Below, piece by piece: positions 871 to 47,757 of a DNA stretch of 64,000 nt; the stretch's first letter is position 1; each line of letters starts with the position of its first letter. The translations under genes and the position numbers were made by a program. Origin of the DNA: Alphaproteobacteria bacterium (lineage in GTDB: Bacteria > Pseudomonadota > Alphaproteobacteria > Rhizobiales > JAKIUO01); NCBI GenBank assembly GCA_024279115.1, contig JAJRRW010000068.1, positions 22,860 through 86,859 of the forward strand. Reading direction: 5' to 3'. The notes under the pieces are model-generated. The model was not told the origin of the DNA and did not search any database. It saw nothing but the letters and a program-made list of their open reading frames with translations.

Positions 871-1857
871 CTAGCCAGCTCCGCGCGGATGATCTACACG
901 GGCCTTGCCAATGGCATCGTTCAATACTTCCTGGCGCAGTTTGATGGTTGGATCATTGGACAGGACATTTTTCATCCAGTCAAAACCTAGTTTGAGCAAT
1001 AGCTCATCGTCCGTGCGCAGCTCCTCCACCAGTTCGGGATCAATCAGATAGGTGGTCAAAAACTTGCTCTCGAAAACAAATTTGCGGAACATTTCAACAT
1101 CGGTTGTAGCCATGAAAAACATCTGCTTGGTCTTGTCGGGAACAACCGTGCCATTCGGCCCGCCCATAACTTTCCAGCTCGACATTTTCATCAAGATTTC
1201 GACCCAGCCCCGGTTCTGCTCATCATAGGCTTCAACCCCCTGTTCTTTTCGGAAATCTCCAACCGACTGGTCTTTTGGCTCTTCATGCCCCTGGCAATGA
1301 TCTTCCTTGACGAGGAAAAAGAAATCTTCGGGCCCCTCGGCGCCCTTCATGCGTACAGCGGCCATGCCAAGCGGGTAATAGCGGCAATTAACAGGACGGT
1401 CCTCATAGACCGTGCAGCCCTCTTCCTCATCCATGAACACGCACGCTCCCTTGCCATCCTTGCCGCTCATGCGCAGCTTGGCCACCGGCATATCGGCGCC
1501 GTGCCACATGGCAGGTATCGTGAACAGCTGCAAAAACTCCGCAGGCTTGATCGTCAGGTTTTTTGACAGGCGTATAATGTCAAAGGGTGTCAGCGTAATA
1601 TCGGCACCATGACAGCAGACATTCCAGCAAGACACGCCCTTGTGACAATTGAAGCAAAAATTGTCTGTCGATTTGATTTTAACAGGCTGAACCGGATTGC
1701 CATCACTGGAGCGCACCCCATCGAAAATATCCATATCCATGTCTTTTTCAGCTTCGCGGCGCGCACGGTCTTCCTCGTCGAGGCGATTGGCGTGCTCAAG
1801 CATGGTTTCTTTTTTCAGCTCGTCAATATCTTTTAGTGATTTCTTGTCGTCACTCAT
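871..1857 (-). CDS. YkgJ/UPF0153-type cysteine-cluster (putative Fe-S/Zn) protein with an acidic N-terminal region
   Basis: Cys cluster FCFNCHKGVSCWNVCCHG, plus later CVF..C and NCRYYP motifs typical of the YkgJ family. The ATG at 1857 (MSDDKK) has GGAG 8 nt upstream; an alternative start lies at 1875. Confidence 0.7.
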   Translation of the reverse strand: MSDDKKSLKDIDELKKETMLEHANRLDEEDRARREAEKDMDMDIFDGVRSSDGNPVQPVKIKSTDNFCFNCHKGVSCWNVCCHGADITLTPFDIIRLSKNLTIKPAEFLQLFTIPAMWHGADMPVAKLRMSGKDGKGACVFMDEEEGCTVYEDRPVNCRYYPLGMAAVRMKGAEGPEDFFFLVKEDHCQGHEEPKDQSVGDFRKEQGVEAYDEQNRGWVEILMKMSSWKVMGGPNGTVVPDKTKQMFFMATTDVEMFRKFVFESKFLTTYLIDPELVEELRTDDELLLKLGFDWMKNVLSNDPTIKLRQEVLNDAIGKARVDHPRGAG

Positions 1858-2092
1858 CTCGTTAACTCCGTTCATTGCCTATTGGCCGCTGACGCGCCTA
1901 ACGCTCGCCGCCCAATCTTCTCTACCAGGCGGGCAGCTTTTCAGCTGGAAGCAGGGGATGATCCCCTGCACCTCATTTGGTGATTTGCAATAGCATGTAG
2001 CACGACGGGGGAGAAAACGATAGTTGTTTGGCATGTGCTATGGCTAAAAGAGTGCGCTATGCTGTCGCGAGTGTGGAGCTTGTGCCATGCGC

Positions 2093-2527
2093 CTATGCGT
2101 CCTCATCCTTTGGAGCATAGGCTGCAAACACTTCGGGGCCGGTCATTTTACTGGTGTCATCGGCAAGGTCATAATAACCCGGCTTTTCATCAATGAAAAT
2201 CTGGTTGGTAAGAGTGAGGGAACTCTGGTCCTCAAGCAATCCCGCTGACAGCATGAATTCCCCCGGCCCCAGCAGCTTGTAATAAAGATTGGTTCCGCAA
2301 GTGCTGCAAAAAGCGCGCTCGGCCCAGTCGGATGATTGATAGGCGGTGATATGCTCCTCGCCGCTGATCTCGATATCCTTGCCCACATGCACCGCCATAT
2401 AGGGCCCACTCGCCCAGCGGCGACACATCTCGCAATGACATGTGCCAACCTGATGATGGTCTTTGGTGATTTTGATCTCGACAGACCCGCACAGGCATTT
2501 GCCAGTTCGTTGCACGGTTTCAGACAT
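2093..2527 (-). CDS. GFA/CENP-V family (glutathione-dependent formaldehyde-activating-like) zinc protein
   Basis: CLCGSV..CHCEMCRRW..FCSTCG Cys pattern diagnostic of the GFA domain. Start chosen at MSETVQ (2527); the ORF track extends to 2578. Confidence 0.8.
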   Translation of the reverse strand: MSETVQRTGKCLCGSVEIKITKDHHQVGTCHCEMCRRWASGPYMAVHVGKDIEISGEEHITAYQSSDWAERAFCSTCGTNLYYKLLGPGEFMLSAGLLEDQSSLTLTNQIFIDEKPGYYDLADDTSKMTGPEVFAAYAPKDEDA

Positions 2528-2850
2528 GTTGATCTCCCAATATTTTCGCCATCCCTTCAGAAAGGGGCAAGGTTTCATCGTCTGCGCGGCGGGCGGCAGG
2601 GGATGACCCCCTGCACCTCATCTTATTTTGGGGATATGTGTGACGGGGTGTCAAGAAGCAAGCTGGTGCAGATATACAAGCACACTCAGTACGAAATTTT
2701 TCCACAAACACTTGATCCCCCCCTTGCAAAATCGGTTTCCAAAGGCTGACCTTTGGTGCCAGCTGCATAAGCTGCCCCCCGGCGAGGGGATTATCGAAAG
2801 CATCCGTATTGCTCGAGAGGCCTCGCCATTGACAACCGATGCTCATTCAT

Positions 2851-2944: not shown

Positions 2945-4885
2945 TTATTTGTAGATTTTTTCCACAAGATCGATATGTGGACGTTTGATCATTTCCCATT
3001 CGCCGGTCTTTGGATCGACTTTCGAGTTGACGAAACATTTCCAGTTTTCTTCGTCAAGGTCGAGGAAGTCAGAGCGGTAATAGAAACCAGGATAACGACT
3101 TTCTTCGCGGAACAAGATGTGACGCAGATGCGCTTCACCAGTCCACATACGATGATAGTTTTCCCAGGCACGCATCAGCTCATGGAGATCTTTGGCGCGC
3201 ATGTTCTCACTGTCTTCTTTCAGCATGGCGAGATATTTCAAACCTTCTTCCAGCATAATGCCGTTGGTCTGGTAGTAAGTGGCAACGCCAGCTACATACT
3301 CGTCCATGATTTTCTGCAGACGCATCTGGAACATTTTAGGAGTGATATAATGCGGGTTGATATCTTCCGCAGTGGTCTTGTCCTTATGCTCCATATAGGT
3401 GCGAACAGGCTTGTAGATTTCGTCAGCAAAGCCTTGCGCAGTGCCGTCAAATTCTGGTGCGAAATCGGCGTGATCCTGACAATATTTGACCATTGCCTTA
3501 CCAGCGATACGACCTTCAGCATGTGAGCCTGAAGAGAATTTATGACCAGAAGCGCCAACACCGTCACCAGCTGTAAACAAGCCTTCAACAGTTGTCATGC
3601 GGTCATAACCCCACTGCCATTCGGCAGGCGCGATATCGGAAGGTCCAGAGACCCAGATGCCGCAGCAACCAGAATGTGATCCAAGCAGATAAGGCTCGGT
3701 TGGGATCAGCTCTGATTTGCTTTTCTCAGGGCGAATGTTGAGACCGGCCCAAACGCCAGCCTGTCCAATGCACATGTCGAGGAAATCTTCCCAGGCTTCA
3801 GCAATCAAATGCTTGTACTCGGTTGGATCCATTTTCTCGGCAAGGGCCGCAAGCGCTGTTGGTGTGTCCATGAAGATCGGGCCTTTGCCGTCTTTCATTT
3901 CTTTCAACATCGCATGGTTACGAAGACAAGACGGGATCACGACAGCTTTGTCGTAAGGTCCGTACTGTTCGAGCATGGCAGCGTTTTTGACGAGATAGTC
4001 TTCACCAAAAGCGTTGGTTGCTTTTGATTTAAAGAGCAAGAACCAGGCGCCCACAGGACCATAACCGTCTTTAAAACGGGTTGGAACGAAGCGGTTTTCC
4101 ATCATGGTCAGCTCGGCGCCGACTTCGGAAGCCATGGCATAAGTAGAACCAGCGTTCCAGACAGGATACCAAACACGGCCCATGCCTTCACCTGTTGAGC
4201 GAGGACGGAACACGTTCACAGCACCACCACAGACGTTGAGGATTGCTTTGGCCTTGAAGACGTAGATCTTGTCTTCGCGGTTTGAGAAACCAACAGCACC
4301 GGCGATACGGTTTGGATTGTTTTTGTCGAGCAGATATTTAACGATGAAGACGCGCTCATAGATGTTTTCCATCCCCAGAGCTTTCTTGGCAGCTTCCGCA
4401 ACAATCATCTTGTAGCTTTCACCATTGATCATGATCTGCCAGCCGCCGGAATGAACGGGCTTGCCGCCATCTTTGAGCAGTTTGCCACCTTTGGACTGCC
4501 AGCTTGCGCCATCAACGCGCTTGCCGTCTTCCATTTCTTTCCAAACAGGCAAACCCCATTCTTCAAACAGATGAACCGAATCATTCACATGACGACCAAC
4601 ATCATAGACGAGGTCATCACGGGTGATGCCCATCAGGTCAGCAGCAACATACTGGCAATATTGCTCAGGTGTTTTGCCATCGAGATAGGTGTTAATAGCA
4701 GACAGGCCCATGGCAACCGCACCAGAGCGATCCATAGCAGCTTTGTCTACGAGCGTGATTTTAAGATCGTCGCCAGCCCAGCGCACAGCTTCATAAGCCG
4801 CGCCACAAGCTGCCATACCACCACCCACGAACAGGATGTCGGTATCGATTTCGACGATTTCCGGCTCGCCAAAAGTTCCAGCCAT
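2945..4885 (-). CDS. aprA: Adenylylsulfate (APS) reductase alpha subunit
   Basis: 646 aa. N-terminal FAD fold DILFVGGGMAACGAA, with overall AprA-like sequence and length. Lies immediately downstream of aprB. Confidence 0.95.
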   Translation of the reverse strand: MAGTFGEPEIVEIDTDILFVGGGMAACGAAYEAVRWAGDDLKITLVDKAAMDRSGAVAMGLSAINTYLDGKTPEQYCQYVAADLMGITRDDLVYDVGRHVNDSVHLFEEWGLPVWKEMEDGKRVDGASWQSKGGKLLKDGGKPVHSGGWQIMINGESYKMIVAEAAKKALGMENIYERVFIVKYLLDKNNPNRIAGAVGFSNREDKIYVFKAKAILNVCGGAVNVFRPRSTGEGMGRVWYPVWNAGSTYAMASEVGAELTMMENRFVPTRFKDGYGPVGAWFLLFKSKATNAFGEDYLVKNAAMLEQYGPYDKAVVIPSCLRNHAMLKEMKDGKGPIFMDTPTALAALAEKMDPTEYKHLIAEAWEDFLDMCIGQAGVWAGLNIRPEKSKSELIPTEPYLLGSHSGCCGIWVSGPSDIAPAEWQWGYDRMTTVEGLFTAGDGVGASGHKFSSGSHAEGRIAGKAMVKYCQDHADFAPEFDGTAQGFADEIYKPVRTYMEHKDKTTAEDINPHYITPKMFQMRLQKIMDEYVAGVATYYQTNGIMLEEGLKYLAMLKEDSENMRAKDLHELMRAWENYHRMWTGEAHLRHILFREESRYPGFYYRSDFLDLDEENWKCFVNSKVDPKTGEWEMIKRPHIDLVEKIYK

Positions 4886-4927: not shown

Positions 4928-5428
4928 TCATGCAGCTACACAATATTGATATTCCATTGCAGCTGGCCTCGCTCGGTTAGAGCGAGCCAGCACAACAATG
5001 TCGTTGTTAAGCGATTGTTGGCAGATCACCTCTTCGGTGAACAGGTTGAGGCCATTGATATCACCTGGCTCTGGCTTGTTGCCATAGGGATCAATTGATC
5101 CAACTGGCGTTGTGCGAACCGGGAATTTGTAGCGCTCAACAGCTCCGTCGCGGAACTTGATAGTCCACATAATGGCACTATCGGTACGCAGTGGGATCAC
5201 AGCGCCGCCCATTGGAACCCAGTCAGCAAAAGCGCGGACTTCGATGGCCTGCTGTGGGCAAGCTTTCACGCAGCACTGGCATTCCCAGCACTGTTCAGGT
5301 TCCTGATTGAAAGCTTTCATGCGCTCGGTGTCGAGCTTCATGAGGTTATTTGGACAGATATACATACAAGCGGTGACTTCACCACCTTTACAACCGTCGC
5401 ATTTGTCAGTGTGAACAAAAGTAGGCAT
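4928..5428 (-). CDS. aprB: Adenylylsulfate (APS) reductase beta subunit (2x[4Fe-4S])
   Basis: MPTFVHTDKCDGCKG..CMYICP and CWECQCCVKACP ferredoxin motifs plus the AprB-type C-terminal tail. Gene order is aprB-aprA. Confidence 0.95.
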   Translation of the reverse strand: MPTFVHTDKCDGCKGGEVTACMYICPNNLMKLDTERMKAFNQEPEQCWECQCCVKACPQQAIEVRAFADWVPMGGAVIPLRTDSAIMWTIKFRDGAVERYKFPVRTTPVGSIDPYGNKPEPGDINGLNLFTEEVICQQSLNNDIVVLARSNRARPAAMEYQYCVAA

Positions 5429-6127: not shown

Positions 6128-6607
6128 TCATTCCAATAAATCGATGATTTCAACTTTCTTCTTGGCTTTGGCCACGTCGAGCGCCGTCTCGCCATCCGCG
6201 TCGCAGGTCTTGGCGCTGGCCCCGTGCGATAAAAGCAGTTCCACAATATCTTTTTTGCCACGTGCCGCCGCCCAGTGCAAAGGCGTGCCACCATGCTTGT
6301 CGACAAAACTCGCATCTGCCCCACATTCGATATAGGCATGCACGATCGCCACATTGCCGTTGCGGATACCCTCGATCATGTTTTCGCTGTCATTGAGCTT
6401 GTTGGTGTTCCAGCCCGACACGCCAAAATAGACCAGTTCCCCGTCTTTGACTATTTGCACCATGGGCTCATATGTCAGGGCCTGTGTATCCACCACACAA
6501 GCGCCATTGCCATATTCTTTGGCCGCCGTCTCGGCTCCTTGCATCGATTGAAAGCCATACATAACGCGCCCATCAGGTGAACGCGTAAAATATCTGTGCT
6601 TGGCCAT
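6128..6607 (-). CDS. Ankyrin-repeat protein
   Basis: The C-terminal half carries ANK consensus GGTPLHWAAARGKKDIVELLLSHGA and DGETALDVA. Confidence 0.8.
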   Translation of the reverse strand: MAKHRYFTRSPDGRVMYGFQSMQGAETAAKEYGNGACVVDTQALTYEPMVQIVKDGELVYFGVSGWNTNKLNDSENMIEGIRNGNVAIVHAYIECGADASFVDKHGGTPLHWAAARGKKDIVELLLSHGASAKTCDADGETALDVAKAKKKVEIIDLLE

Positions 6608-6638: not shown

Positions 6639-6757
6639 TTCTTTATTGTAACCTGCTTCTTATCGAAAAACCGGTGCCCACTTTTGTCGGAAGCACTCTT
6701 TGCTCTACCGTGCTTCTTATCGAAAAACCGGTGCCCACTTTTGTCGGAAGCACTTTA
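6639..6757. repeat. Tandem pair of repeat module D (44-bp perfect direct repeat, 57-bp period)
   Basis: tgcttcttatcgaaaaaccggtgcccacttttgtcggaagcact occurs at 6654-6697 and identically at 6711-6754. The same family recurs at 25116-25182 and 39284-39350. It has an internal gtgcttc/gaagcac stem. Confidence 0.8.
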
Positions 6758-7447
6758 ATATGGCACATCCACCGCCTTGCACAAGAAGCGCATCAGCGGG
6801 CTGGCGGCTTTAAAGCCATTGATGACATCTGTTAAGAAATCTCGTCGCGCCGCCTTGGTTGTTGTGGCGCCATGCATCAAGAAAAAGCTTTTGCGTTTTA
6901 GATCCTCAATATGGGGATGATCGGCATCATAACCGCGCGGCGGCCGCTTCAGACGATCGCCGCGCAACTCTCCAAACATGGCGTTGAGCTTTTTATTATT
7001 GCGAACACGGCTCCAGCCAGCCCGATCATTATCAATGCTTTGCCGGATGCTTTTGATCTGCCTGGACGCAGGCATCCAGACGCCGCCGCCATAGCGAATA
7101 TTACCGGGCTCCAGATGCACATAAAAACCTGGAGCATGAGCATCGCGCCCGTTCATATGACGAAATTGGATCGCAGCGTTGTCTTTATAGGGCCGCTTAT
7201 CTTTAGCGAACCGCACATCACGGTAAATGCGAAACATCGAGCCGCCGTGCTTCTTCGGGTTGGCGATAAAACAGGGCGATATTTTCTCCAACGACTCGGC
7301 AATGTCCTCGATAAAATCGAGAATCGGCTCAATCACCTGGCGATCATAGCGCTGCTTGTTCGCAGCCAACCATTCGCGAGTATTATGTTCTTTAAGGTCG
7401 ATAAAAAACTGAAAAAACGCTTCATCAAAGCCGTTAAATTTTGTCAT
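6755..7447 (-). CDS. DUF2461 (TIGR02453) family protein
   Basis: Family-typical sequence: FFIDLKEHNTREW, FRIYRDVRFAKDKRPYK, PGFYVHLEPG. Confidence 0.8.
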   Translation of the reverse strand: MTKFNGFDEAFFQFFIDLKEHNTREWLAANKQRYDRQVIEPILDFIEDIAESLEKISPCFIANPKKHGGSMFRIYRDVRFAKDKRPYKDNAAIQFRHMNGRDAHAPGFYVHLEPGNIRYGGGVWMPASRQIKSIRQSIDNDRAGWSRVRNNKKLNAMFGELRGDRLKRPPRGYDADHPHIEDLKRKSFFLMHGATTTKAARRDFLTDVINGFKAASPLMRFLCKAVDVPY

Positions 7448-8441: not shown

Positions 8442-8786
8442 ATGATTTACAAGATTTTACTGACCTCTATCGCCATCGTGATGAGCACCACTATCGGCAG
8501 CGCCATGTCATTGGGTCCAGCCACCTCGCAACTGGGAGCATCCGTTGGCAACAACCAGCTGCAATTGATCGCGGACCGAAAAGACACGCGATCGAAACGG
8601 CGCGGTAGCCGCCGTAATACTAACAAGCTGTCGGCCTCACGAGGAGGCGTCAAAGACACCTGCCCTGGCGGAAACAAGCCCTGTATCAAAAAGCTTAAAG
8701 CCAGTTGCGACAAAGCCGGTGGCGGATTATCGACCGAGCCAGATGGCGGCGTGGACTGCTATGTCGTTGGTATTCATGACCAATAG
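8442..8786 (+). CDS. Small secreted basic/Cys-containing hypothetical protein
   Basis: RBS aaaggag lies 8 nt upstream. N-terminal signal-like MIYKILLTSIAIVMSTTIGSAMS. No family recognised. Confidence 0.5.
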   Translation: MIYKILLTSIAIVMSTTIGSAMSLGPATSQLGASVGNNQLQLIADRKDTRSKRRGSRRNTNKLSASRGGVKDTCPGGNKPCIKKLKASCDKAGGGLSTEPDGGVDCYVVGIHDQ

Positions 8787-9035
8787 TAGATGAGCCCCGG
8801 CGATATGAGGCTTGGAATGTTCCCCCTGGCATTTCGAGCCTCGAATTCCCTCTGGCGAGGTAATCCCAATGACAAGGGCGGGACCACCAATGCGGCCCCG
8901 CCCTTCAAATTTCGATATGTGTCACCCCAGCGGGGGCTGGGGTCCATACTCCCTTGCCCCTCAATTGAGAGAATGAACCCCCAATCGAAAGACTTGTGTA
9001 TGAATCCTCGCCTGCGCGGGGATGACAAATTCAGT

Positions 9036-10223
9036 TTAGTCATTCAGGCCTTGATAATAGTCCATCAGGATTTGCGCGACTTCGGGGCGCGAAAACTCTT
9101 TGGGCGGCGCTTCACCATTGCCGAGCATTTCGCGCACTGCGGTGCCAGATAGAAGCACGAAGTCTTCCTTGTTGTGATCCGGGGCTTCGCGCATCATCAC
9201 GACCTTATCGAGTTTTTTCGAGTAAGCCGTGTGGTCAGCGGCGAAAATTTCCAGTTCCAGAGCACCGGCTGGCACGTCGTCGAAAATTTCCTGAGCGCCA
9301 AAATCGGTGTAATAGTCACCAACCCCTGCGTGATCACGACCAACGATCAGATGGGTTGCCCCCATATTCTGGCGGAACACGGCATGCAGTACGGCTTCAC
9401 GTGGTCCGGCATAGAGCATATCGAACCCATAGCCGGTGACCATGGCGCTGTTTTCGGGGAAATAGATGTCGACCATCTTGCGGATCGAGGCATCGCGCAC
9501 ATCAGCAGGAATATCGCCCGCTTTCAACTTGCCCAGCAACATGTGAATGACCAGGCCATCAGCATCAAGACGGTCCATGGCCATGTGGCACAGCTCTTCA
9601 TGAGCACGATGCATGGGGTTACGGGTCTGGAAGGCCACAACCTTGTTCCAGCCGCGCGCCTTGATCTCGTCGCGAATTTCAACGGCGGTTTTGTAGGTAT
9701 CGCCAAAATCACTCTCGAAATAGGAATAGTTGAGCACCTGAATGGGGCCCGAAAGCGCCACATTGCCAGCCGCCAAAAACGCCCCAACCCCGGGATGGTC
9801 TTTGTCGGTGGTACCATAAACCTTTTCAGCCACGGTCATCATTTCCTCATCGGAAAAAGCCTCAACCGCTTCAACATTCATAATGGCAATCACCGGATTG
9901 CCATCGACATTGGGATCTTTCAAGGCAATGCGGTCCCCGGAACTGATCGAACCGGCGTCACGCACCATGTTGACAACCGGAGTTGGCCAGAACAGGCCGT
10001 TGGTGGTTTTCATGCCTTGAGCAACTGACAAGGTATCGGCCTTGTTCATATAACCGGTCAGCGGGTTGAAATAACCACCGCCCAGCATCACCGCATTGGC
10101 AGCGGCGGCCGAACTGACAGTGATTGATGTGAGACCATTTGCCTCGCTTTGCAGTTTTTCGTTTTCGGCAGGATCGGAGACGAACAGGGGATTGAGTTCA
10201 TCGGAGCCATGGGGCTTTATCAT
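9036..10223 (-). CDS. sat: Sulfate adenylyltransferase (ATP sulfurylase), single-domain dissimilatory type
   Basis: QTRNPMHRAHEEL and GRDHAGVG motifs. The start at 10223 (MIKPHG) has gaggaag upstream; the ORF track extends to 10250. Confidence 0.95.
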   Translation of the reverse strand: MIKPHGSDELNPLFVSDPAENEKLQSEANGLTSITVSSAAAANAVMLGGGYFNPLTGYMNKADTLSVAQGMKTTNGLFWPTPVVNMVRDAGSISSGDRIALKDPNVDGNPVIAIMNVEAVEAFSDEEMMTVAEKVYGTTDKDHPGVGAFLAAGNVALSGPIQVLNYSYFESDFGDTYKTAVEIRDEIKARGWNKVVAFQTRNPMHRAHEELCHMAMDRLDADGLVIHMLLGKLKAGDIPADVRDASIRKMVDIYFPENSAMVTGYGFDMLYAGPREAVLHAVFRQNMGATHLIVGRDHAGVGDYYTDFGAQEIFDDVPAGALELEIFAADHTAYSKKLDKVVMMREAPDHNKEDFVLLSGTAVREMLGNGEAPPKEFSRPEVAQILMDYYQGLND

Positions 10224-10618
10224 CGCATCTTCCTCTAAGGTAACTATCATAATTGCGGGCCCTGATCACACCGATACCCGACGAGATGGTCGATCATGAC
10301 AGGTTCAAATAATGTGATGGGCTGCTTTCGTTTATCCATCACAGCGCTTTATTGCAAGCCCCCCAACCGCCCTTATTGACGCATTATTCCCCTTAGAACC
10401 TCCCTTATCGGCGCCAAACATTGATGCAAACCCCCGGCTTTTTAGGGACATTTATTAAAAAATCAGAAGATTTGAACATTCGAAAATTTACAGATATGAA
10501 AATTTGCGCTATGTCTGGCGGAAAGAATACCAAAACCGATCCCCTTTATAACCAGTCAGCTCGCTATTGGGTCTGGCAATTTGAAGTATGGATCACCATG
10601 AGGATGGAGGCTTTTTGC

Positions 10619-12289
10619 ATGGCTGGTGACGACGATCTGGAAGACGAATTTGCGGCGTTTGAACGCGAAGCAAAAGAAGCGGCTGCCAAAGCCCAGGAAG
10701 AAATGGCCAAAAACGCCAAAAAGGCGGAGCCCGCAGCTGAACCTGTTGCCGCGAGCGATGAGCCAGAAGAAGAAGACGAATTTGCAGCCTTTGAGCGTGA
10801 AGCCAGAGAAGCTGCCGCAGCCGCGGCCTCTTCCATGGGCGGCGGCGCAAGCGGCGGCACGTCCAGCGCAACCGCTTCAAGTGCACCAAAAGCTGACGAC
10901 AAAGCTGACGAAGAGGAAGAAGACGACACTCCCGTTGGTGTGCTGTCCGATGCTGAAAAAGCCGAAAGAGACGCGGCGCAAGCGGCGGCGGTTAAAACCA
11001 TTAACAAGGCCTCCAAGGCCCTGTTTGGCGCCACCAGCCAGACCATTCTTGTGGTCGGCGGTGGTATCGCTGGTGTCACGGCTGCCATTGAAGCGGCTGA
11101 AACCGGTTATGACGTCATACTGCTGGAAAAAAATTCCTATCTTGGTGGGCGGGTAACGCGGCTGAATCGCTATTTCCCCAAACTCTGTCACCCCTCTTGT
11201 GGTCTTGAGATCAACTATCAGCGCATCAAAAACAATCGCAATCTGAAAGTCATGACCATGACAGAAGTTGTTGGCGTTTCTGGCGCCAAGGGCGATTACA
11301 AGGTCAAAATCAAAACCGCACCGCGTTTTATTGACGAAGGTTGCAACGGTTGTGGCTCTTGTTCCAATGCCGTTGAGACAACCGTCGACAATGAATATAA
11401 TTACGGCATGGATCAGATCAAGGCGGTCAACCTGCCCCACGAACATGCCTTTCCCATGAAATATGTGATGTCACCAGACGTCATCGGCACCGATGATGCT
11501 GACAAAATCAAGGAGGCCTGTACGTCTGGTCATGTTGATCTTGAGGCCACCGCTACGGATGGCGATCTGTCGGTTGGAGCCATCATCTGGGCCACCGGCT
11601 GGACACCATATGACAGCAACAAGCTGGAGCATTACAGCTACAGTCATAGTGCCGACATCATCAATAATGTTGAGATGGAACGCCTCGCCAGTCCAGATGG
11701 ACCAACCAATGGCAAAATTCTCAAGCCATCGGATGGCAAAGAGCCCAAACGCATCGCCATGATCCAGTGTGCCGGATCGCGCGACATCAATCATCTGCCT
11801 TATTGCTCGATGATCTGCTGCCTCGCCAGCCTCAAGCATGCCGCTTATGTGCGTGAACAATATCCCGACGCGGAGGTTGATATTTATTATATCGACATTC
11901 GCGCCCACGATAAGATGAGCAGCTTTTATGAGCGCGTCAAACGCGACGCCAAAGTCAATTTCATCAAATCAAAACCCGGTCACATCACCATTGGTGCTGA
12001 TGGTCGCCCCTTGATCCACGGTGAAAATACCATCGGTGATCGTGAAATTTACGATGAAGCTTATGATCTCGTCGTTCTGGCCACAGGCATGGAGCCTAGC
12101 CTGCCCCTCGAAACAGATTTCGAAGCGGCCCCCGAACGCGACGAATATGGCTTCGTCATCAATGGATCGGACAGTGACAATGGTCAGTTCGCAGCTGGCG
12201 TTGCCGGTGGTCCATTTGACGTTGCGCTATCAACACAAACAGCAACAGCTAGCGCCTTGAAGGCCATTCAAGCTGTTCGCGGTAACTAA
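10619..12289 (+). CDS. qmoA: QmoA-like HdrA-family flavoprotein with a roughly 140-aa acidic/Ala-rich N-terminal extension
   Basis: The ATG at 10619 sits 8 nt after ggagg. FAD fold VVGGGIAGVTAAIEAAETG follows the extension. QCAGSRD and MICC motifs are HdrA/QmoA-like. It is the first gene of a four-gene operon. Confidence 0.85.
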   Translation: MAGDDDLEDEFAAFEREAKEAAAKAQEEMAKNAKKAEPAAEPVAASDEPEEEDEFAAFEREAREAAAAAASSMGGGASGGTSSATASSAPKADDKADEEEEDDTPVGVLSDAEKAERDAAQAAAVKTINKASKALFGATSQTILVVGGGIAGVTAAIEAAETGYDVILLEKNSYLGGRVTRLNRYFPKLCHPSCGLEINYQRIKNNRNLKVMTMTEVVGVSGAKGDYKVKIKTAPRFIDEGCNGCGSCSNAVETTVDNEYNYGMDQIKAVNLPHEHAFPMKYVMSPDVIGTDDADKIKEACTSGHVDLEATATDGDLSVGAIIWATGWTPYDSNKLEHYSYSHSADIINNVEMERLASPDGPTNGKILKPSDGKEPKRIAMIQCAGSRDINHLPYCSMICCLASLKHAAYVREQYPDAEVDIYYIDIRAHDKMSSFYERVKRDAKVNFIKSKPGHITIGADGRPLIHGENTIGDREIYDEAYDLVVLATGMEPSLPLETDFEAAPERDEYGFVINGSDSDNGQFAAGVAGGPFDVALSTQTATASALKAIQAVRGN

Positions 12290-12306
12290 TAAGAGGGTAA
12301 AGAGTT

Positions 12307-14577
12307 ATGAGCGAAGAAGTTTTCGAACACAAACCCGCCGCCTATCTGTGCGGTGGTTGCGGCATCAAGGATGCTCTGGATATGGATGCGCTGGAAACAG
12401 CCATCACCGGCGGCATGATGGTCTCCAATGTCAAACAGTCCGATGCCTTTTGTTCCGGCAAGGGCCTGGAGACGATCAAGAGCGACATGAAAAGCGGCGA
12501 CGTCAATCAAGCCATTGTAGCTGGTTGTTCGCCGCGGGTCATGGTGCAGGAATTTAATGAGGTCGGCGGTCAGGTGTTTCGCGCCAATATGCGTGAACAG
12601 GTGATCTGGCAACAGCCCGCCAATAACGAAGACACGCAGGCCCTGGCCACCGATAATATGCGCATGGCCATTACCCAGGCCCGCAAGTCCGAGCCACCCC
12701 AGGCTCATTGGGATGGCGCAACCTCTTTGAAACTACTGGTGGTCGGCGGTGGTATCACCGGCCTGACAGCGGCGCGCGAAGCCTCCAAAACCGGTGCCCA
12801 AGTGGTGATTGTTGAAAAGACCGACAAGCTGGGCGGCTGGGCTGGCAAATGGAGCAAATTCATTCCCGAAAATGCCCCGTACCGCGAGCCTGAAGACAAT
12901 CCCGTCCCTGCCCTCATCGCCGAAGTCGAGAACGATGACAATATCACGGTATTGTTCGACACGATTGTCGATCGCACCGAAGGTGGTCCAGGTGAATTTT
13001 CCTGCCGCCTGAAAAATGGTTCGGGGACCAATTGGGATATTTATGGCGCGGTGGTTTTGGCCACGGGCTGGCGTCCTTACACCAGCGAAGATCAAAAGAA
13101 ATTCGGCATCGGCGAAACCGATGGCGTTGTCACCGACATTGAGATGGAAGAAAAGCTGTCCTCTGGTGATCTCAAAGATGTCAAAAATATCATCTTCATC
13201 ATCCCCGGCGATAGCGACCGCATGGTCTACAGCTCCGGCGTCTCTGACAAGGTGGCCATCAAACAGGCTCTGCAAATGACGCAGGCCGATCCCGATGTGA
13301 TGGCCTATATCATTCATGAAGATTTCCGCTCTCATGGTCTGGCCGAAGAATTTTATCGCCACGCCCAGGAAAAAGGCGTCATCTTCCAGCGCGGCGAAGT
13401 GAAAAGCATCAGCTCTGATCGAACCGTCACCGTTGATGACGAGCTTCTGGGGCTGGAAATCCCCATGAGCGGCATTGATCTGGTGGTTGTCTCAACCGGC
13501 ATGGTTCCCAACTCCACCAATATTGATCTTGAGGCCACCGAAAGAGGCGCCGATCAATTAAAGTCCGACATCAACCCCGTTGCGCCGATCTTTACGGTCA
13601 ACGGGACGCAGGTTGACGAGGACCTCGCGGAAACGGCGGCTGACGCTGAAGCAGAGGAAACGATCCCCGAAGGGGGTCCTCTGCTCAACCTGCAATATCG
13701 TCAAGGACCCCATGTGCCGGTTCTGGCCAACGGCTTTGCGGACAGTCACTATATCTGCTTCCCCTATGAAACACGCCGCTCGGGCATCTACACGGCTGGT
13801 CCGGTGCGCCGCGCCATGACTGCCTCTGAAGCCATCAACGATGCACAAGGTGCCGTCCTCAAGGCCATTCAGGCCATGCGTCAGGCCAATGAGGCCAAGG
13901 CGGTTCATCCGCGTGCGGGCGATTTGTCGTTCCCAGAATTTGGTCTCGATATCTGCACCAAGTGCCGTCGCTGCACGGTGGAATGTCCGTTCGGTGCCAT
14001 TGATGAAGATCCTGAAACTGATTATCCAGTGGTCAACCCGACGCGTTGTCGTCGTTGCGGCACCTGCATGGGCGCTTGTCCCGTGAGCACCATCAGCTTC
14101 AAAAACTACAATCCGGCCCAGGTCTCCGACATGGTTGCCGCTGGTACAGAAGAGTGCCCTCCCGACAAACCACGTATTCTGGTGCTGGCTTGCGAGAACG
14201 ATGCTTATCCGGCAATGGATATGGCGGGCATTAACAGACTTGAAGCCAGTCCCTATATGAGAGTGATACCGGTGCGCTGCCTTGGCTCCGTGACCCTTTT
14301 GTGGGTCAAAACGGCGCTGGAAAAAGGCTATGATGGCATCATGCTGCTGGGCTGCAAATCCGGCGATGATTATCAGTGTCATTTCGTCAAGGGATCCGGC
14401 ATTGCGCAAGAACGCATGAGCAAGGTGGGTGACACGCTACGCTCCATGATGATGGAAGAAGAACGGGTCCAGGTCAACGAGATCGCCATCGCCGACAGCG
14501 AGCGGGTCACACAGATCCTCAATAATTTTGGCAAGCAGATCGAAGATATCGGTCTCAACCCATTTAAAGGATTTTAG
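12307..14577 (+). CDS. qmoB: QmoB-like HdrA-family flavoprotein with two ferredoxin motifs and a C-terminal MvhD-like domain
   Basis: VVGGGITGLTAA. Ferredoxin motifs CTKCRRCTVECP and CRRCGTCMGACP. The C-terminal ILVLACENDAYPA..VRCLGSV..GCKSGDDYQCHF matches the MvhD/FlpD type. Confidence 0.9.
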   Translation: MSEEVFEHKPAAYLCGGCGIKDALDMDALETAITGGMMVSNVKQSDAFCSGKGLETIKSDMKSGDVNQAIVAGCSPRVMVQEFNEVGGQVFRANMREQVIWQQPANNEDTQALATDNMRMAITQARKSEPPQAHWDGATSLKLLVVGGGITGLTAAREASKTGAQVVIVEKTDKLGGWAGKWSKFIPENAPYREPEDNPVPALIAEVENDDNITVLFDTIVDRTEGGPGEFSCRLKNGSGTNWDIYGAVVLATGWRPYTSEDQKKFGIGETDGVVTDIEMEEKLSSGDLKDVKNIIFIIPGDSDRMVYSSGVSDKVAIKQALQMTQADPDVMAYIIHEDFRSHGLAEEFYRHAQEKGVIFQRGEVKSISSDRTVTVDDELLGLEIPMSGIDLVVVSTGMVPNSTNIDLEATERGADQLKSDINPVAPIFTVNGTQVDEDLAETAADAEAEETIPEGGPLLNLQYRQGPHVPVLANGFADSHYICFPYETRRSGIYTAGPVRRAMTASEAINDAQGAVLKAIQAMRQANEAKAVHPRAGDLSFPEFGLDICTKCRRCTVECPFGAIDEDPETDYPVVNPTRCRRCGTCMGACPVSTISFKNYNPAQVSDMVAAGTEECPPDKPRILVLACENDAYPAMDMAGINRLEASPYMRVIPVRCLGSVTLLWVKTALEKGYDGIMLLGCKSGDDYQCHFVKGSGIAQERMSKVGDTLRSMMMEEERVQVNEIAIADSERVTQILNNFGKQIEDIGLNPFKGF

Positions 14578-14579
14578 AC

Positions 14580-15179
14580 ATGACAGTCCCTATGCCGACA
14601 TCCAGTCGCAAATATGATCTCAATTTTGCCCGCTGGGTCCGCGACAATGTCGCGGGCGGCGACAAAATGAACATGTGCATGCAATGCGGCACCTGTTCGG
14701 GTTCATGTCCCATCGGCACAGAAATGGAAGATGGTCCGCGCAAACTGTTCATGATGATCAGAGCCGGCATGAAAGAAGAAGTGCTTTCCTCCAATTCTGT
14801 TTGGGAATGTACCAGCTGCTATCGCTGTGTGGTACGATGCCCGCGCGGCGTCCCTGTCACCTATCTGATGCAGGGCCTGGCGGCTCTTGCCTCCAAAGAG
14901 GGCTATGCCCCCAAAGTTGAGAACAATTATTTCTCGCGATATTTCTGGAAGAGTGTTGAGCTTACCGGCAAGACCGATGAACGCCTTGTGCCCACGGCCT
15001 ATTTCTTCTCATTTGGCCTGATCGAGGGCATCAAGCGCTCACTTGGCAATCTGAAGATTGCCTTCAACATGGCCAAAGCTGGACGCATGCATATCGGACT
15101 GCCTCACCGCATCAAGGATACCAAAGGCCTCAAGGCCATCCTTGCCAAAGCCGCGCAAATCGAAGATCAAAAAAGCTAG
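14580..15179 (+). CDS. hdrC: HdrC-like 4Fe-4S dicluster subunit
   Basis: CMQCGTCSGSCP and CTSCYRCVVRCP motifs. Starts 2 nt after the qmoB stop. Confidence 0.8.
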   Translation: MTVPMPTSSRKYDLNFARWVRDNVAGGDKMNMCMQCGTCSGSCPIGTEMEDGPRKLFMMIRAGMKEEVLSSNSVWECTSCYRCVVRCPRGVPVTYLMQGLAALASKEGYAPKVENNYFSRYFWKSVELTGKTDERLVPTAYFFSFGLIEGIKRSLGNLKIAFNMAKAGRMHIGLPHRIKDTKGLKAILAKAAQIEDQKS

Positions 15180-15191
15180 GAAGGGAGTTTT

Positions 15192-16100
15192 ATGATGAGT
15201 AAGAAAAAGAAAATGACCTATTATCCGGGCTGTAGTTCGCAAGGCTCGGGTCGCCATCTGGACGAATCTATCCGCGCAATCCTGCCTGATCTCGGGGTTG
15301 ACGTGGTTGATATTGATGACTGGAACTGTTGCGGAGCCTCCGTTGGTAATATTGGTGGTGGCCCCTTGCCCAACCTGGCGCTGACAGGCCGCAATCTGGC
15401 TCTGGCACAAGAACAGGGCAATCAGGACATTGTGACCGGTTGTGCCGCTTGCTATTTGAACACTCATGGCGGCAATGAGAAAATCAAGGCTGACGTCAAA
15501 AAACGTCGCGACGTCAATGATGCTCTGGGAGAGGCTGGCCTTTCCTATGATTACGACCTCGATGTACATCACGTCATGGAAGTCATCGTCAATGATATCG
15601 GCATGGAAGAAGTCGAGAAACAAGCCACCAACAAGCTCAAGGGCCTCAAAGTGGCCGGCTGGGTCGGCTGCCAGACGGTGCGCCCGTTCGCGGGGACGGA
15701 AACAGGTGGCAAATACGCCACCTATGAAGACCCCACCTTCCTTGACGAGATCACAGAAGCCTGCGGCGCTGAAGTCACCGACTTTGCTCCCAAGACGAAC
15801 TGCTGCGGTGGGTCTGTTGCCGTTATGAAACCCGAAAAAACCCTGCACCTGATGAAAACCATTCTCGATGCAGCCGTTGAATCTGGCGCTGACGTGGTGA
15901 GCACTCCTTGCCCGCTTTGCCAGACCAATCTGGAAATGTATCAAGACGCCATCAACAAGGAATTTGGCACGAACTATAATATGCCAGTGGTGTTCCCCAG
16001 CCAGCTCATCGCGGTTGCCATGGGCAAGGACAAGGAAAAGGATGCCGGCCTGCAACGCCAGACCATCCGCTCGAAAAAACTTGAAGATATGGCCAAATAG
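15192..16100 (+). CDS. hdrB: HdrB-like subunit with two CCG domains
   Basis: YYPGCS..NCCGAS and GCQ..NCCGGS..CPLCQ motifs, i.e. duplicated CCG domains. Confidence 0.85.
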   Translation: MMSKKKKMTYYPGCSSQGSGRHLDESIRAILPDLGVDVVDIDDWNCCGASVGNIGGGPLPNLALTGRNLALAQEQGNQDIVTGCAACYLNTHGGNEKIKADVKKRRDVNDALGEAGLSYDYDLDVHHVMEVIVNDIGMEEVEKQATNKLKGLKVAGWVGCQTVRPFAGTETGGKYATYEDPTFLDEITEACGAEVTDFAPKTNCCGGSVAVMKPEKTLHLMKTILDAAVESGADVVSTPCPLCQTNLEMYQDAINKEFGTNYNMPVVFPSQLIAVAMGKDKEKDAGLQRQTIRSKKLEDMAK

Positions 16101-16130
16101 CCGCTTCAATGCACACAACAATAAAGATCA

Positions 16131-16165
16131 AAAAGGCGCTGTAAATTCTCACAGCGCCTTTTTTG
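16131..16165 (+). terminator. Rho-independent terminator after hdrB
   Basis: aaaaggcgctgt / acagcgcctttt stem followed by a T-run. Confidence 0.75.
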
Positions 16166-16419
16166 CTGGCGATCGGTTTTGAACGTGAACTCTGCCTTAC
16201 CAGCATGTTAAATATTGGTAATAAAAGGCAGTAACTTCAAATTTTTACCCCAAACAGGTCTAATTACCGGCATTATGTAGCCTCGTTTCTCAGTCAATTC
16301 TATAGCTATTGAAGTAACGCTCGTTAAGTCCACAAATGGCTGTTTGGTCAAGTGGCAAGGGCAACAGGCAACAAATGACTTGAGACAAGTAAATTGGAAA
16401 TACCGGGGGGTATTGTAAT

Positions 16420-16824
16420 ATGGCCGATTTTGAAAATGCCTTGGCAAAAGCCGTCATGAGCTCGCTAAGCGAAGAAGGCGAAAAGGAGGATGTTTGTAAG
16501 CGGCCTCCCGAGATTGAGGCGCGGCGCATCCTTGATCTGTTTAACGATATGAATGTGACCAATGGGTTCGCCACCGGCGACCTGGTCACCTGGAAACAGG
16601 GGTTGAAAAATGGCCGCTATCCGCAAAAGAATTATCCAGCCATTGTGACGCGCATCTATGAGACCCCGCTCTCGCGCTCTGATATGGAATCAGGCTCCAA
16701 CCATTTTCGCGAACCGCTGGACCTGGTGATCCTTGTCGATACCGGCGATGAAGTCAGCGAATTTCATGTCGATAGTCGGCGCTTCAAACCTTATGAGGGG
16801 CAAATTGACGGATTTGGTGACTAG
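16420..16824 (+). CDS. Hypothetical protein
   Basis: 134-aa ORF with plausible composition. No family recognised. Confidence 0.45.
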   Translation: MADFENALAKAVMSSLSEEGEKEDVCKRPPEIEARRILDLFNDMNVTNGFATGDLVTWKQGLKNGRYPQKNYPAIVTRIYETPLSRSDMESGSNHFREPLDLVILVDTGDEVSEFHVDSRRFKPYEGQIDGFGD

Positions 16825-17946: not shown

Positions 17947-17994
17947 TGGACCTGCCCTTGATTTAATGGCTTAACCTAATGAGTTGGCGCGCAG

Positions 17995-18123: not shown

Positions 18124-18163
18124 TGCTCTACGAGCACTCAACAACCGCAAACAAGGATGCACA

Positions 18164-37555: not shown

Positions 37556-38590
37556 ATGATTTTTCGCCAATTATTTGACAGTGTTTCATGTACTTACAGC
37601 TATCTCATTGCCAGCAGAGCTGGTGGGGAGGCCTTGATTATTGATCCGGTACTGGAAAAGGTGGATCGCTATTTGACCCTCATTGACGAGCTTGATCTCA
37701 AACTGGTGAAGGCCGTTGACACCCATTTGCACGCCGACCACATCACGGGGCTTGGCGCTTTGCGCGACAAAACCCGCTGCATCACCGTGATGGGGGAGCA
37801 AAGCCTGGTCAATGTGGTGTCCATGCGGGTCGCGGACGGCGATCATATTGATATTGAAGGCGCTCGCCTTGATGTGTTGTACACCCCTGGCCACACGGAC
37901 GATAGCTACAGCTTCTTGATGGGCGACCGTATCTTCACGGGCGATACGCTGCTGATCCGCGGCACGGGCCGCACCGACTTCCAAAATGGCGATGCGCGGT
38001 CTCAATATCATTCCATTTTTGATCGACTTTTGAAGCTGCCCGAACAAACGCTGGTCTATCCAGGCCACGATTACAAAGGCGATACCGTCAGCACGATTGG
38101 CGAGGAAAAAGCCTTTAACCCGCGCCTGCAAGTGCAATCAATCGACGAATATGTCGACCTCATGAGTAATCTCAATCTGCCCAATCCCAAATTGATGGAT
38201 GTCGTTGTTCCCGAAAATATGAAAATTGGACTGGTGCAAAAAGAAAATGCCAAATGCGGCTGGTCGTTGACCGCCCAGCAGGTGGCAGAGCTCAAGGACA
38301 AACCTGATATTTTGTTTGTTGATCTGCGCGATGACAATGAACGCAAAAAAGATGGCATCATCGAGGGCTCAATCCATGTCCCCTATCCCGACTTGCAAGA
38401 ATGTCTTGCTGATCATGGAAAGCTAAGAGCGCAAGCGCTCGACCATAATAAGCGTCTGGTGTTTTTATGTAGCTTTGGAGAGCGCTCCGCCATGGCAGTG
38501 CGCGCTGCCCAGGATCAGGGCCTATCAACCGCCTGCCATATCGCTGGCGGCATCAATAATTGGAAACCCGCTGATCGGTCAACGGGCTGA
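37556..38590 (+). CDS. Persulfide dioxygenase (ETHE1-type MBL fold) fused to a C-terminal rhodanese domain
   Basis: THLHADHITG, YTPGHTDDS and GDTLLIRGTGRTDF are ETHE1/PDO-like. The C-terminal FLCSFGERSAMA..AGGINNW is a rhodanese active-site loop. Confidence 0.85.
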   Translation: MIFRQLFDSVSCTYSYLIASRAGGEALIIDPVLEKVDRYLTLIDELDLKLVKAVDTHLHADHITGLGALRDKTRCITVMGEQSLVNVVSMRVADGDHIDIEGARLDVLYTPGHTDDSYSFLMGDRIFTGDTLLIRGTGRTDFQNGDARSQYHSIFDRLLKLPEQTLVYPGHDYKGDTVSTIGEEKAFNPRLQVQSIDEYVDLMSNLNLPNPKLMDVVVPENMKIGLVQKENAKCGWSLTAQQVAELKDKPDILFVDLRDDNERKKDGIIEGSIHVPYPDLQECLADHGKLRAQALDHNKRLVFLCSFGERSAMAVRAAQDQGLSTACHIAGGINNWKPADRSTG

Positions 38591-45911: not shown

Positions 45912-47495
45912 CTATTCCGCGGGGACAGCCGCGCCTGGTACAGGCTGGGGAACGGTGACATCGCCGATGCGGCCACCTTGTTTTTTACCTGATGTTTCCA
46001 GATCGATCTCCAGATCTTCCGTGTTTTTGTGCAGCAGGCTACCGGTTGTTGCGCCGGTATTGCGAGCTCCAAGACGAACCAGGAAGATCAGCAAGCCAAC
46101 GAGGGCCAGCCACCACAGGCCGAGAATGATTTTCTGCCCGACAATCGAATTGGGAGAAATATATTCGTACCATTTATAGGTCTCGATCAGCAGCGTGCTT
46201 TTCAAGAACGCCTTGTGGGCATCGTAGAACAAGGTGAAGGGCAGATAGCCAAGGGCAAACCCCATGAAACCGACCCAGGTGTTGAGATAGCCCATGCCAA
46301 TCCGCATATAGGAGCGGATTTCACAGCCAATCAACATCACGGCCCCCGAGCCAAGCAACAATCCGCCAATCAGATTGCCAACGGTTGTTTGATATTTGAG
46401 CGCCCCGGAAAAAGCGGGACCGACATCAAACAAAGCCCAGACAAACACAATGAAACCAAGCATCACAACCCAGGAGGCAACAATACCGATCAGTGGCAGA
46501 TAGCCTCTCATCAGGGTGCGGGTGATGCGCGGCACGCCCATTTTGGCAAATTTACTGTCATTATTGGTCATGGGCTGGGCGACTTCCATGGCGACCAGCG
46601 AACATTCCGTACCAAAGCCACTTTTGGCCATACCAAAGCCACCGACAATCCCGGCCAGCAAGGTCGTAACGACATAGAACCAGCCCTTGGCATCAATGGA
46701 TTTACTGAACGAAACCAGTTCACCCTTTTTAAGATGTTGCAGGCTTTCGGGGTTGAACAAGCCGCCATAAACGGCAACCCCGAACATGGCGACCGAGAAT
46801 AACAGGGCGAGCCAGAAGATGGGCCGTCTGGTGCCATTATACCCGGCTTTATAGGTGGCTGCTTCGCCGCTATCATTGCCTTTGGCATAAGACAGCGTTT
46901 CTTGATGCTTGAAGAACGGCGCAATGCCCGTGCGGCTCATGACCCAAAAGGCACCGGCTCCGCCAATGGCCATCATGCCAGCTGTGACAAAGGAGTGGAT
47001 ATTGAGCAGGGGAATACCGCCGAGCAGATGGTTGAGTGTGCACCCCCCCGCCAGCCTTGTACCATAGCTGAACAACACGCCGCCCAGAAAGGAAACGAAC
47101 AGCACGCGGGCAGGATAATGGGCCCAGATGCGGCTTTCCTTTTCGGCGCGCGTGACCAGCCAGCCACCGATCATCATGCCGACAATCGGCCAGCCGACAC
47201 CGGGAATAAACGCCCCGCCGGTTGAGGCGATGCCGTCAATGGCTTTGCCATAGAGTTCAAAATCTGGCAGATTGAACAGATTATAAAAGGAGACCTCAAG
47301 CCCCCGGAACATCTTGCCAAGATCCGTTGTAACGGTGATGGGTTTGAGAGTTGGTGTTTTGCCGGCCTGTACTTTTGACACCCACAGGCCGATCATATAG
47401 ATCACCTGCGCGATACCAAAAGTGATACCGGCCCAAAAGAACGGCCATTGTTTGCTCATGGCCCTCCTCCATAAAGTTTCTTTCGCCTTTGACAT
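45912..47495 (-). CDS. YeeE/YedE-family sulfur-compound transport protein (long form)
   Basis: Polytopic. Motifs GTRLAGGCTLNH and IGCEIRSYMR are typical of sulfur-transport domains. The start at 47495 (MSKAKE) has ggagg 8 nt upstream. Confidence 0.85.
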   Translation of the reverse strand: MSKAKETLWRRAMSKQWPFFWAGITFGIAQVIYMIGLWVSKVQAGKTPTLKPITVTTDLGKMFRGLEVSFYNLFNLPDFELYGKAIDGIASTGGAFIPGVGWPIVGMMIGGWLVTRAEKESRIWAHYPARVLFVSFLGGVLFSYGTRLAGGCTLNHLLGGIPLLNIHSFVTAGMMAIGGAGAFWVMSRTGIAPFFKHQETLSYAKGNDSGEAATYKAGYNGTRRPIFWLALLFSVAMFGVAVYGGLFNPESLQHLKKGELVSFSKSIDAKGWFYVVTTLLAGIVGGFGMAKSGFGTECSLVAMEVAQPMTNNDSKFAKMGVPRITRTLMRGYLPLIGIVASWVVMLGFIVFVWALFDVGPAFSGALKYQTTVGNLIGGLLLGSGAVMLIGCEIRSYMRIGMGYLNTWVGFMGFALGYLPFTLFYDAHKAFLKSTLLIETYKWYEYISPNSIVGQKIILGLWWLALVGLLIFLVRLGARNTGATTGSLLHKNTEDLEIDLETSGKKQGGRIGDVTVPQPVPGAAVPAE

Positions 47496-47757
47496 GCTTA
47501 AAACCTCCAATTTTGCTGTATTGTCCCCCATGCCTTTCTGGCTCGTTCAGGGGGGTATTGATGGAGGCTAGGTTATGGGGATAGGATAAACTGCTACCTA
47601 GGTATCATCAGGAGAGGTAAAATCTGCGACATATACGACCTCGCGCCCCTCACCGGACAATAATCGCTCAACCATGTAACCAATTGTGGCTATGACCTTG
47701 GGTTCCAAGATCATCCAGCTCTAAAATAGCAAGAGAGTAGAAAGCAGATAAAACCAT

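Follow-up and report, generated by a model that had tools for sequence, protein, structure and literature searches.

The 64-kb stretch of contig JAJRRW010000068.1 analysed here (the window, the only part of the genome available to the analysis) belongs to what looks like an uncultured heterotrophic alphaproteobacterium of the Hyphomicrobiales type and carries four genes, qmoA-qmoB-hdrC-hdrB, which are all located on the plus strand, are separated by 17, 2 and 12 nt and are divergent from the ATP sulfurylase gene sat; the genes of adenosine 5'-phosphosulfate (APS) reductase, aprBA, lie 3.6 kb from sat (Table 1). Genes were placed by means of an open reading frame (ORF) listing and profile searches (Pfam, NCBIfam), and solved structures were compared through the PDB. 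An initial annotation, made from the letters of the sequence alone, had described the same gene identities, strands, gaps and distance, and all of them are confirmed by the ORF listing and the profile searches.

Table 1. Features of the window, with the carriers of the QmoA extension and of ykgJ among related loci (designated L or P).
Feature	Position	Strand	Remarks
YkgJ-family CxxCxxCC protein (ykgJ)	871..1875	-	334 aa; PF03692 7e-10
GFA-domain gene	2093..2578	-	inserted between aprA and ykgJ
aprA, APS reductase flavoprotein	2945..4885	-	TIGR02061 974 bits, far over equivalog cut-off
aprB	4928..5428	-	TIGR02060 199 bits, far over equivalog cut-off
Small ankyrin-repeat protein	6128..6607	-	Pfam Ank_2 1.4e-14; between sat and aprB
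DUF2461 gene	6755..7447	-	inserted into the conserved sat-ank-aprB-aprA-ykgJ order
sat, ATP sulfurylase	9036..10250	-	404 aa; TIGR00339 sopT 397 bits (cut-off 323)
qmoA-like, HdrA-type flavoprotein	10619..12289	+	556 aa from ATG 10619; core from ~11036
qmoB-like flavoprotein	12307..14577	+	756 aa; HdrA-like; 2x[4Fe-4S] ferredoxin domain; fused C-terminal MvhD-like domain
hdrC-like dicluster ferredoxin subunit	14580..15179	+	199 aa; TIGR03290 1.3e-24; PDB HdrC 1.8e-20
hdrB-like subunit	15192..16100	+	302 aa; Pfam CCG x2; TIGR03288 3e-48; SdhE NF042965 3.2e-45; PDB HdrB 7e-38
GC-rich hairpin between A-run and T-run	16130..16164		after hdrB
Metallo-beta-lactamase-fold protein fused to rhodanese (persulfide-dioxygenase/Blh-like)	37556..38590	+	
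YeeE/YedE-type sulfur-transport protein	45912..47531	-	539 aa; adjoins Crp-family regulator (47758-48501)
QmoA extension in relatives	L001 5271-5843		
QmoA extension in relatives	L085 1169-3112	-	
QmoA extension in relatives	L007; P0242		
ykgJ in relatives			L003, L011, L013, L019, L021-L024, L026, L031-L033, L036, L038, L041, L045, L046, L051, L053, L056, L059, L073, L082-L085

The QmoA-like protein matches the NCBIfam HdrA2 model (1.7e-100, ORF residues 191-618), and in the QmoB-like one Pfam recognises an FAD Rossmann region (142-193), a Fer4 region (547-596) and an FlpD domain (PF02662, 2.4e-38 at 624-749). The two CX2CX2CX3CP motifs of QmoB are CTKCRRCTVECP and CRRCGTCMGACP, and its nearest solved relatives are the HdrA and MvhD chains of 5odc/8rvu. 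The HdrC-like subunit has two CX2CX2CX3CP motifs (Cys 33/36/39/43 and 77/80/83/87) and the HdrB-like subunit two complete CCG motifs (Cys 14/46/47/84/87 and 160/204/205/240/243), which are predicted to ligate two non-cubane [4Fe-4S] clusters and to form the putative terminal redox site; the best solved relatives of these two subunits are methanogen HdrB and HdrC, over almost the full length. Ligands are complete for the FAD/Fe-S flavoproteins, for the MvhD-type module and for the two cubane clusters of HdrC and the two non-cubane clusters of HdrB. The scores stay below the NCBIfam equivalog level for HdrB (164.6 vs 345 bits), HdrC (86.8 vs 160) and HdrA (QmoA 337 and QmoB 287 vs a cut-off of 1100 bits). 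The hairpin that follows hdrB is likely a bidirectional intrinsic terminator closing the operon.

The APS reductase belongs, judging from two sequence traits, to lineage II, which is related to that of sulfate-reducing bacteria (SRB). The AprB loop C13-K-G-G-E-V keeps four of the five positions of the lineage-II KGX(D/E)(K/R) loop after Cys-B13, the putative docking loop described for SRB-type and lineage-II AprB, whose partner is QmoABC or QmoAB(-HdrBC) (Meyer and Kuever, PMC2211403), and AprA has Desulfovibrio gigas AprA as its nearest solved relative (924 bits). The four genes are best read as QmoAB-HdrCB (also named HdrAACB), which corresponds to QmoABC without its membrane anchor and is found together with lineage-II AprBA in sulfur-oxidising proteobacteria, and a probability of roughly 70% is assigned to this reading.

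The locus is an ordinary member of a documented set and its arrangement is not new. Surveys of sulfur oxidisers list the module under the name HdrAACB/QmoABHdrCB (PMC6397845, PMC5024460, PMC11294248); the cluster was described in Thiolapillus brandeum, where its function was called unclear (PMC4136832); a large evolutionary study sets HdrAACB against QmoABC and AprM and considers membrane coupling without QmoC unlikely (PMC10504309); lineage-II Apr was noted in Alphaproteobacteria (PMC5099947); and in a heterotrophic taurine-degrading sponge symbiont the module is present, HdrB is found in the proteome and the electrons are drawn to quinone (PMC10356861). The earlier description of an unusual variant known just from Gram-positive sulfate reducers is thus not supported, the variant being established in proteobacterial sulfur oxidisers (PMC2211403, PMC4136832, PMC5024460, PMC6397845, PMC10504309, PMC11294248). 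Gene order, domains, absence of QmoC and AprM and association with sat/aprBA are identical to those of the literature examples, i.e., Sulfuricaulis, Sulfuritalea, Thiobacillus, Thiolapillus and 'Ca. Taurinisymbion'. The window cassette is 42-54% identical to beta- and gammaproteobacterial representatives and 55-73% to many alphaproteobacterial ones, and differs from most of the former in the divergently adjacent sat, in a rare repeat extension of QmoA and in the heterotroph-looking alphaproteobacterial host.

Comparison with better-known systems places the module between several architectures. With canonical QmoABC (Desulfovibrio, Archaeoglobus, Chlorobi) it shares the QmoA/QmoB architecture with the MvhD-like tail, the Qmo-type loop of AprB and an HdrC corresponding to the Fe-S domain of QmoC; unlike QmoABC, it is devoid of the HdrE-like di-haem b membrane domain and has a separate HdrB-like CCG subunit instead. 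The two CCG motifs of HdrB, the two [4Fe-4S] clusters of HdrC, the HdrA-type flavoproteins and the MvhD module are in common with methanogen HdrABC-MvhAGD (5odc, 8rvu, 7bkb), from which the window differs in having two distinct HdrA-like proteins rather than a homodimer, an MvhD domain fused to QmoB and AprBA instead of a hydrogenase as partner, and in lacking a metabolism of coenzyme M (CoM) and coenzyme B (CoB). AprM-type loci (Allochromatium, SAR11) have the same task, the delivery of electrons from sulfite oxidation by AprBA to an acceptor, but the window has no aprM upstream of aprB, and its AprB has the lineage-II loop and not the lineage-I features of those loci (PMC2211403). Finally, in contrast to the sHdr system (hdrC1B1A-hyp-hdrC2B2 with lbpA), the order is A-A'(MvhD)-C-B, with a single HdrCB pair and no conserved lbpA-like neighbour.

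Relatives were collected by scanning species-representative genomes with the HdrB-like protein; at least 595 stretches encode a relative, and 81 loci, the 80 best and one metagenomic contig (L001), were compared with the window proteins. The full cassette is present in 62 of them, 18 are cut by contig ends and one, L017, is degenerate. This last locus (8628-10876, Rhodospirillales bin96 chromosome) alone lacks qmoA and the greater part of qmoB; a 249-aa MvhD/FlpD-only protein is encoded ahead of hdrC-hdrB, an AMP nucleosidase gene adjoins and apr and sat are not found nearby, so that either a remnant or another use of the HdrCB pair may be considered.

HdrB matches 1-120 are 66-95% identical to the window protein, the few named ones deriving from metagenome-assembled genomes of Hyphomicrobiaceae, Rhizobiales and Kaistiaceae. 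An alphaproteobacterial clade (HdrB identity 55-73%) includes Xanthobacteraceae, Roseiarcus, Kiloniellales, Hyphomicrobiales, Rhodomicrobium, Magnetospirillum and Rhodospirillales; here sat adjoins the cassette, usually divergently, and aprBA is close by. The beta/gamma clade (42-46%) comprises Sulfuricella, Sedimenticola, Thiodiazotropha and Rhodocyclaceae, which are genera or families of known sulfur oxidisers, together with Thiohalomonadales, and its cassette is often apart from apr, beside cbbQ/cbbO or soeABC-like genes. Cultured carriers met in the scan are Sedimenticola selenatireducens and Magnetospirillum sp. SS-4. Over the whole set sat occurs in 31 of the 81 loci, nearly all alphaproteobacterial, and aprA in 32. 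These counts support the proposed tie of the cassette to aprBA/sat. A general Hdr-like complex unrelated to APS reductase, whose closeness to sat and aprBA is coincidental, could account for the many beta/gamma loci with the cassette apart from aprBA and for L017, which keeps just the MvhD-like piece and hdrC-hdrB without apr; against the recurrence of sat and aprA, with sat usually divergently adjacent, such a coincidence is hardly credible. The QmoAB-HdrCB locus of the window adds a heterotroph-looking Hyphomicrobiales-type alphaproteobacterium to the organisms with lineage-II APS reductase and this module, and the comparison shows that the pairing of the two with an adjacent sat is widespread in Alphaproteobacteria.

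The direction of the pathway in the window is most likely sulfite oxidation, as proposed at the outset, and three sets of data favour it. AprA is 62-85% identical to that of alpha-, beta- and gammaproteobacterial sulfur-oxidiser clades and 53% to that of L079, an SRB-type sat-aprBA-qmoAB-hdrCB locus assigned to Desulfobacteraceae; dsrEFH/tusA/dsrE2, dsrE, soeABC or cbbQO flank the cluster in some relatives; and the genes of the window include those of a persulfide-dioxygenase-rhodanese fusion and of a YeeE-like sulfur transporter, among neighbours of the kind seen in heterotrophs (amino-acid permeases, a TRAP transporter, malonate genes and PhoX). The flanking sulfur genes of the relatives and the dioxygenase fusion make the direction plausible. 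The opposite course, in which Sat/AprBA/QmoAB-HdrCB reduces sulfate to sulfite as in Gram-positive sulfate reducers, can appeal to Desulfovibrio gigas AprA as the nearest solved structure and to the same cassette in L079; nevertheless, the lower AprA identity to that very locus, the oxidative markers of the relatives (dsrEFH, soeABC, cbbQO), the absence of dsr genes in the window and the O2 dependence of the persulfide dioxygenase fusion render it very improbable.

soeABC-like genes were found beside the qmo/hdr cassette or beside aprBA-ykgJ in eight loci (L012, L025, L039, L047, L074, L075, L080, L084); the set consists of a cytoplasmic molybdopterin oxidoreductase of about 960-990 aa and an Fe-S subunit, to which L084 adds a membrane subunit of the DmsC type. 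The genes of two routes for sulfite oxidation in the cytoplasm are therefore often found side by side.

According to the sulfite-oxidising reading, AprBA would convert cytoplasmic sulfite and AMP to APS. Sulfite could be supplied by persulfide dioxygenase, organosulfonates or the oxidation of sulfane sulfur, and the fusion encoded in the window is a possible cytoplasmic source. Sat would then form ATP and sulfate from APS and pyrophosphate, a reaction of established enzymology that would pull the preceding step. The two electrons would pass from AprB to the HdrA-like QmoA/QmoB, by analogy with Desulfovibrio QmoABC, for which the contact between QmoA and AprAB was demonstrated (PMC3333476), AprBA presumably taking the place of the hydrogenase as redox partner. 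Homology to methanogen HdrABC suggests that HdrC, with its two [4Fe-4S] clusters, would subsequently relay them to the two non-cubane clusters in HdrB. If HdrB works as the transmembrane-less SdhE does, a complex lying peripherally on the membrane would then pass them to the quinone pool.

The absence of a membrane anchor was examined at the level of the proteins and of the neighbouring genes. Kyte-Doolittle hydropathy with a 19-residue window detected no transmembrane (TM) segment in any of the four cassette proteins, in agreement with the original observation by eye: the highest value, 1.71, corresponds to the Rossmann GxGxxG strand of QmoA and is the sole one above 1.6, and the maxima of HdrC and HdrB are 0.78 and 0.86. 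A QmoC-like or AprM-like gene is not present within the 64 kb, as had been reported; positions 1-20000 contain no credible multi-TM ORF and the membrane proteins of the remainder are transporters. The HdrC-like protein aligns with positions 2-100 only of the 360-position QmoC model (70 bits vs a cut-off of 300) and is the counterpart of the N-terminal Fe-S part of QmoC alone. Likewise, no conserved multi-TM gene was observed in the 10-kb flanks inspected around the fetched relatives, and an aprM-type multi-TM gene upstream of aprB is found neither in the window nor in 28 related loci, among which the two exceptions with a multi-TM gene in this position have ABC-3 and MFS transporters. Since the flanks of the relatives have no such gene either, the missing anchor characterises the family in general and does not reflect a gap of the window.

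The lack of TM helices does not exclude coupling to quinone because HdrB resembles SdhE, a TM-less 'membrane anchor', nearly as strongly as it resembles methanogen HdrB. SdhE is the CCG protein that, in methylmenaquinol:fumarate reductase (type E succinate:quinone oxidoreductases), links a soluble flavo/Fe-S dehydrogenase to quinone; the window HdrB matches its model over the full length (3.2e-45) with 155 bits vs a cut-off of 500, and the partners QmoAB/HdrC are entirely different, which makes SdhE a working analogy only. The module had been called soluble: it is TM-less indeed, while its solubility does not follow from this, given the closeness of the two HdrB scores (154.9 bits to SdhE and 164.6 to methanogen HdrB). 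Quinone, reduced by a peripherally attached complex, is tentatively ranked first as terminal acceptor, a best guess that falls somewhat short of even odds and is based on the similarity to SdhE and on the consideration that a general acceptor fits a module present in both autotrophs and heterotrophs. The route of electrons beyond HdrB without a membrane subunit and the conservation of energy by bifurcation are questions already recognised in the field, and both thiol/disulfide and bifurcation/confurcation ideas have been published (PMC3333476, PMC4949241).

A truly soluble complex, in which HdrB reduces a thiol/disulfide carrier (a protein of the DsrC/TusA type, a lipoyl protein or a low-molecular-weight disulfide) as methanogen HdrB does with CoM-S-S-CoB, would agree with the completeness of both CCG motifs, with the almost full-length relationship to methanogen HdrB/HdrC, with the lack of TM segments, with the tusA/dsrE2/dsrEFH or dsrE genes that adjoin the cluster in some relatives and with the published judgement that membrane coupling without QmoC is unlikely (PMC10504309). 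On the other hand, the potential of the APS/sulfite couple is about -60 mV and, by established thermodynamics, the reduction of a typical disulfide would be uphill unless the pull of Sat is strong; electrons are drawn to quinone in the taurine-degrading heterotroph that has the module (PMC10356861); the fetched loci share no conserved carrier gene; and tusA- or DsrC/TusE-like genes were not detected in the window by tblastn with Escherichia coli queries or by a CPxP scan, which is a weak test. A thiol/disulfide acceptor is consequently regarded as rather unlikely.

Flavin-based bifurcation at the QmoA/QmoB flavin, with one electron directed via HdrCB to quinone or a disulfide and the other uphill to ferredoxin or NAD(P)+, would save reverse electron transport. 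The subunits amount to a complete HdrA(A')BC with fused MvhD, which is the bifurcating methanogen architecture, QmoB retains the ferredoxin-like 2x[4Fe-4S] domain, the possibility was raised previously (PMC3333476, PMC4949241) and many carriers are autotrophs, with cbbQO adjoining the cassette. Nevertheless, the heterotroph-looking organism of the window would profit little, and the inspected flanks contain no conserved gene for a ferredoxin, Rnf or an NAD-binding partner; bifurcation is therefore judged improbable.

Some points weigh against QmoAB-HdrCB acting as a sulfite-oxidising module that delivers electrons peripherally to quinone. The literature searched contains no purified QmoAB-HdrCB complex, biochemistry or acceptor, and the catalytic direction is drawn from genomic context alone. 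HdrB and HdrC are devoid of a clearly hydrophobic surface helix, as their hydropathy maxima indicate, and the HdrB, HdrC and SdhE scores are all far under the NCBIfam family cut-offs, hence analogy, not membership, is supported. Moreover, as 64 kb of the genome are covered, QmoC, AprM, a DsrMK-type protein or another partner could be encoded outside the window.

The genes around aprBA offer features that are possibly new, namely ykgJ downstream of aprA, the ankyrin gene between sat and aprB and the repeat extension of QmoA. The YkgJ-family protein has about 300-335 aa across the loci, eight invariant Cys and no TM segment. Of the 24 loci that extend far enough to be judged, 21, from alpha-, beta- and gammaproteobacteria, have its gene directly 3' of aprA in the same orientation, as do all six contigs sampled through the YkgJ protein itself; it is not present in the SRB-type locus L079. 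No NCBIfam family or PDB fold was matched by this protein and no connection between YkgJ and apr was found in the literature; it could be a redox link or a maturation factor of the sulfite-oxidation unit. The ankyrin gene, coding for about 160-190 aa, lies in the sat-aprB interval of 13 alphaproteobacterial loci (the window and 12 others) and in five of the six contigs sampled through ykgJ, and a MazG-like gene separates it from aprB in several relatives. Its conservation in this position within the alphaproteobacterial clade indicates a component of the locus and not a marker of symbiosis. The DUF2461 gene is common to the window and L001, while the GFA-domain gene is not found at the corresponding position in the mapped loci.

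The most likely start of qmoA is ATG 10619, which is preceded by GGAGG. The first ~140 residues of the protein (window 10619-11035) form an acidic low-complexity extension ahead of the Rossmann fold, which begins at about 11036; it contains the EDEFAAFEREAKEAAA motif, written more fully as EDEFAAFEREA(K/R)EAAA, in 2-4 copies across the carriers: two in the window, L007 and P0242, three in L001 and four in L085. The copy number thus varies among close relatives and the length of the extension ranges from about 140 to 220 aa; the start and the in-frame differences in repeat number are common to the window and L001. Such an extension was not found in any other QmoA sequence examined, and a comparison of residues 1-135 with 1.84 billion representative proteins gave three matches, i.e., a 52-aa fragment, one QmoA and one low-complexity protein. 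With so few matches, the hypothesis of a common domain was rejected and the extension is considered clade-specific rather than a known domain.

It may be speculated that YkgJ and the ankyrin protein are unrecognised components of a larger Sat-AprBA-QmoAB-HdrCB unit and that the QmoA repeats of one small clade act as a multivalent tether of the metabolon, although this proposal is doubtful at present. If YkgJ and the ankyrin protein are components, published accounts of the sulfite-oxidation unit understate its size. In practical terms, the list of candidate partners becomes sharper and now names the YkgJ-type protein, the small ankyrin protein and the repeats at the N-terminus of QmoA.

At the 3' end of aprB, a 1-nt deletion near 5031-5037 was noticed in comparison with the 95%-identical gene of L001 (GAAGAGG vs GAAGAAGG). 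The resulting frameshift swaps the last 7 residues (GDLPTIA, followed by the stop) for an unrelated 33-residue tail and is due either to a sequencing or assembly error or to a genuine change of the AprB tail. The region of about 1.6 kb from the DUF2461 gene to sat (7450-9036) contains short ORFs only and no recognisable gene; one of them, 8442-8786 on the plus strand, codes for a basic, Cys-rich product with a hydrophobic N-terminus, and the syntenic gap of L001 is half as long and has a different small ORF with a hydrophobic N-terminus. The Rfam scan of the window gave two tRNAs only, and riboswitches were not detected in the vicinity of sat, apr or qmo. Farther downstream, the region 25250-32133, unrelated to the cassette, encodes a 1299-aa TPR-CHAT protein, an ECF sigma factor, a 230-aa protein without a family match and an S8 subtilase.

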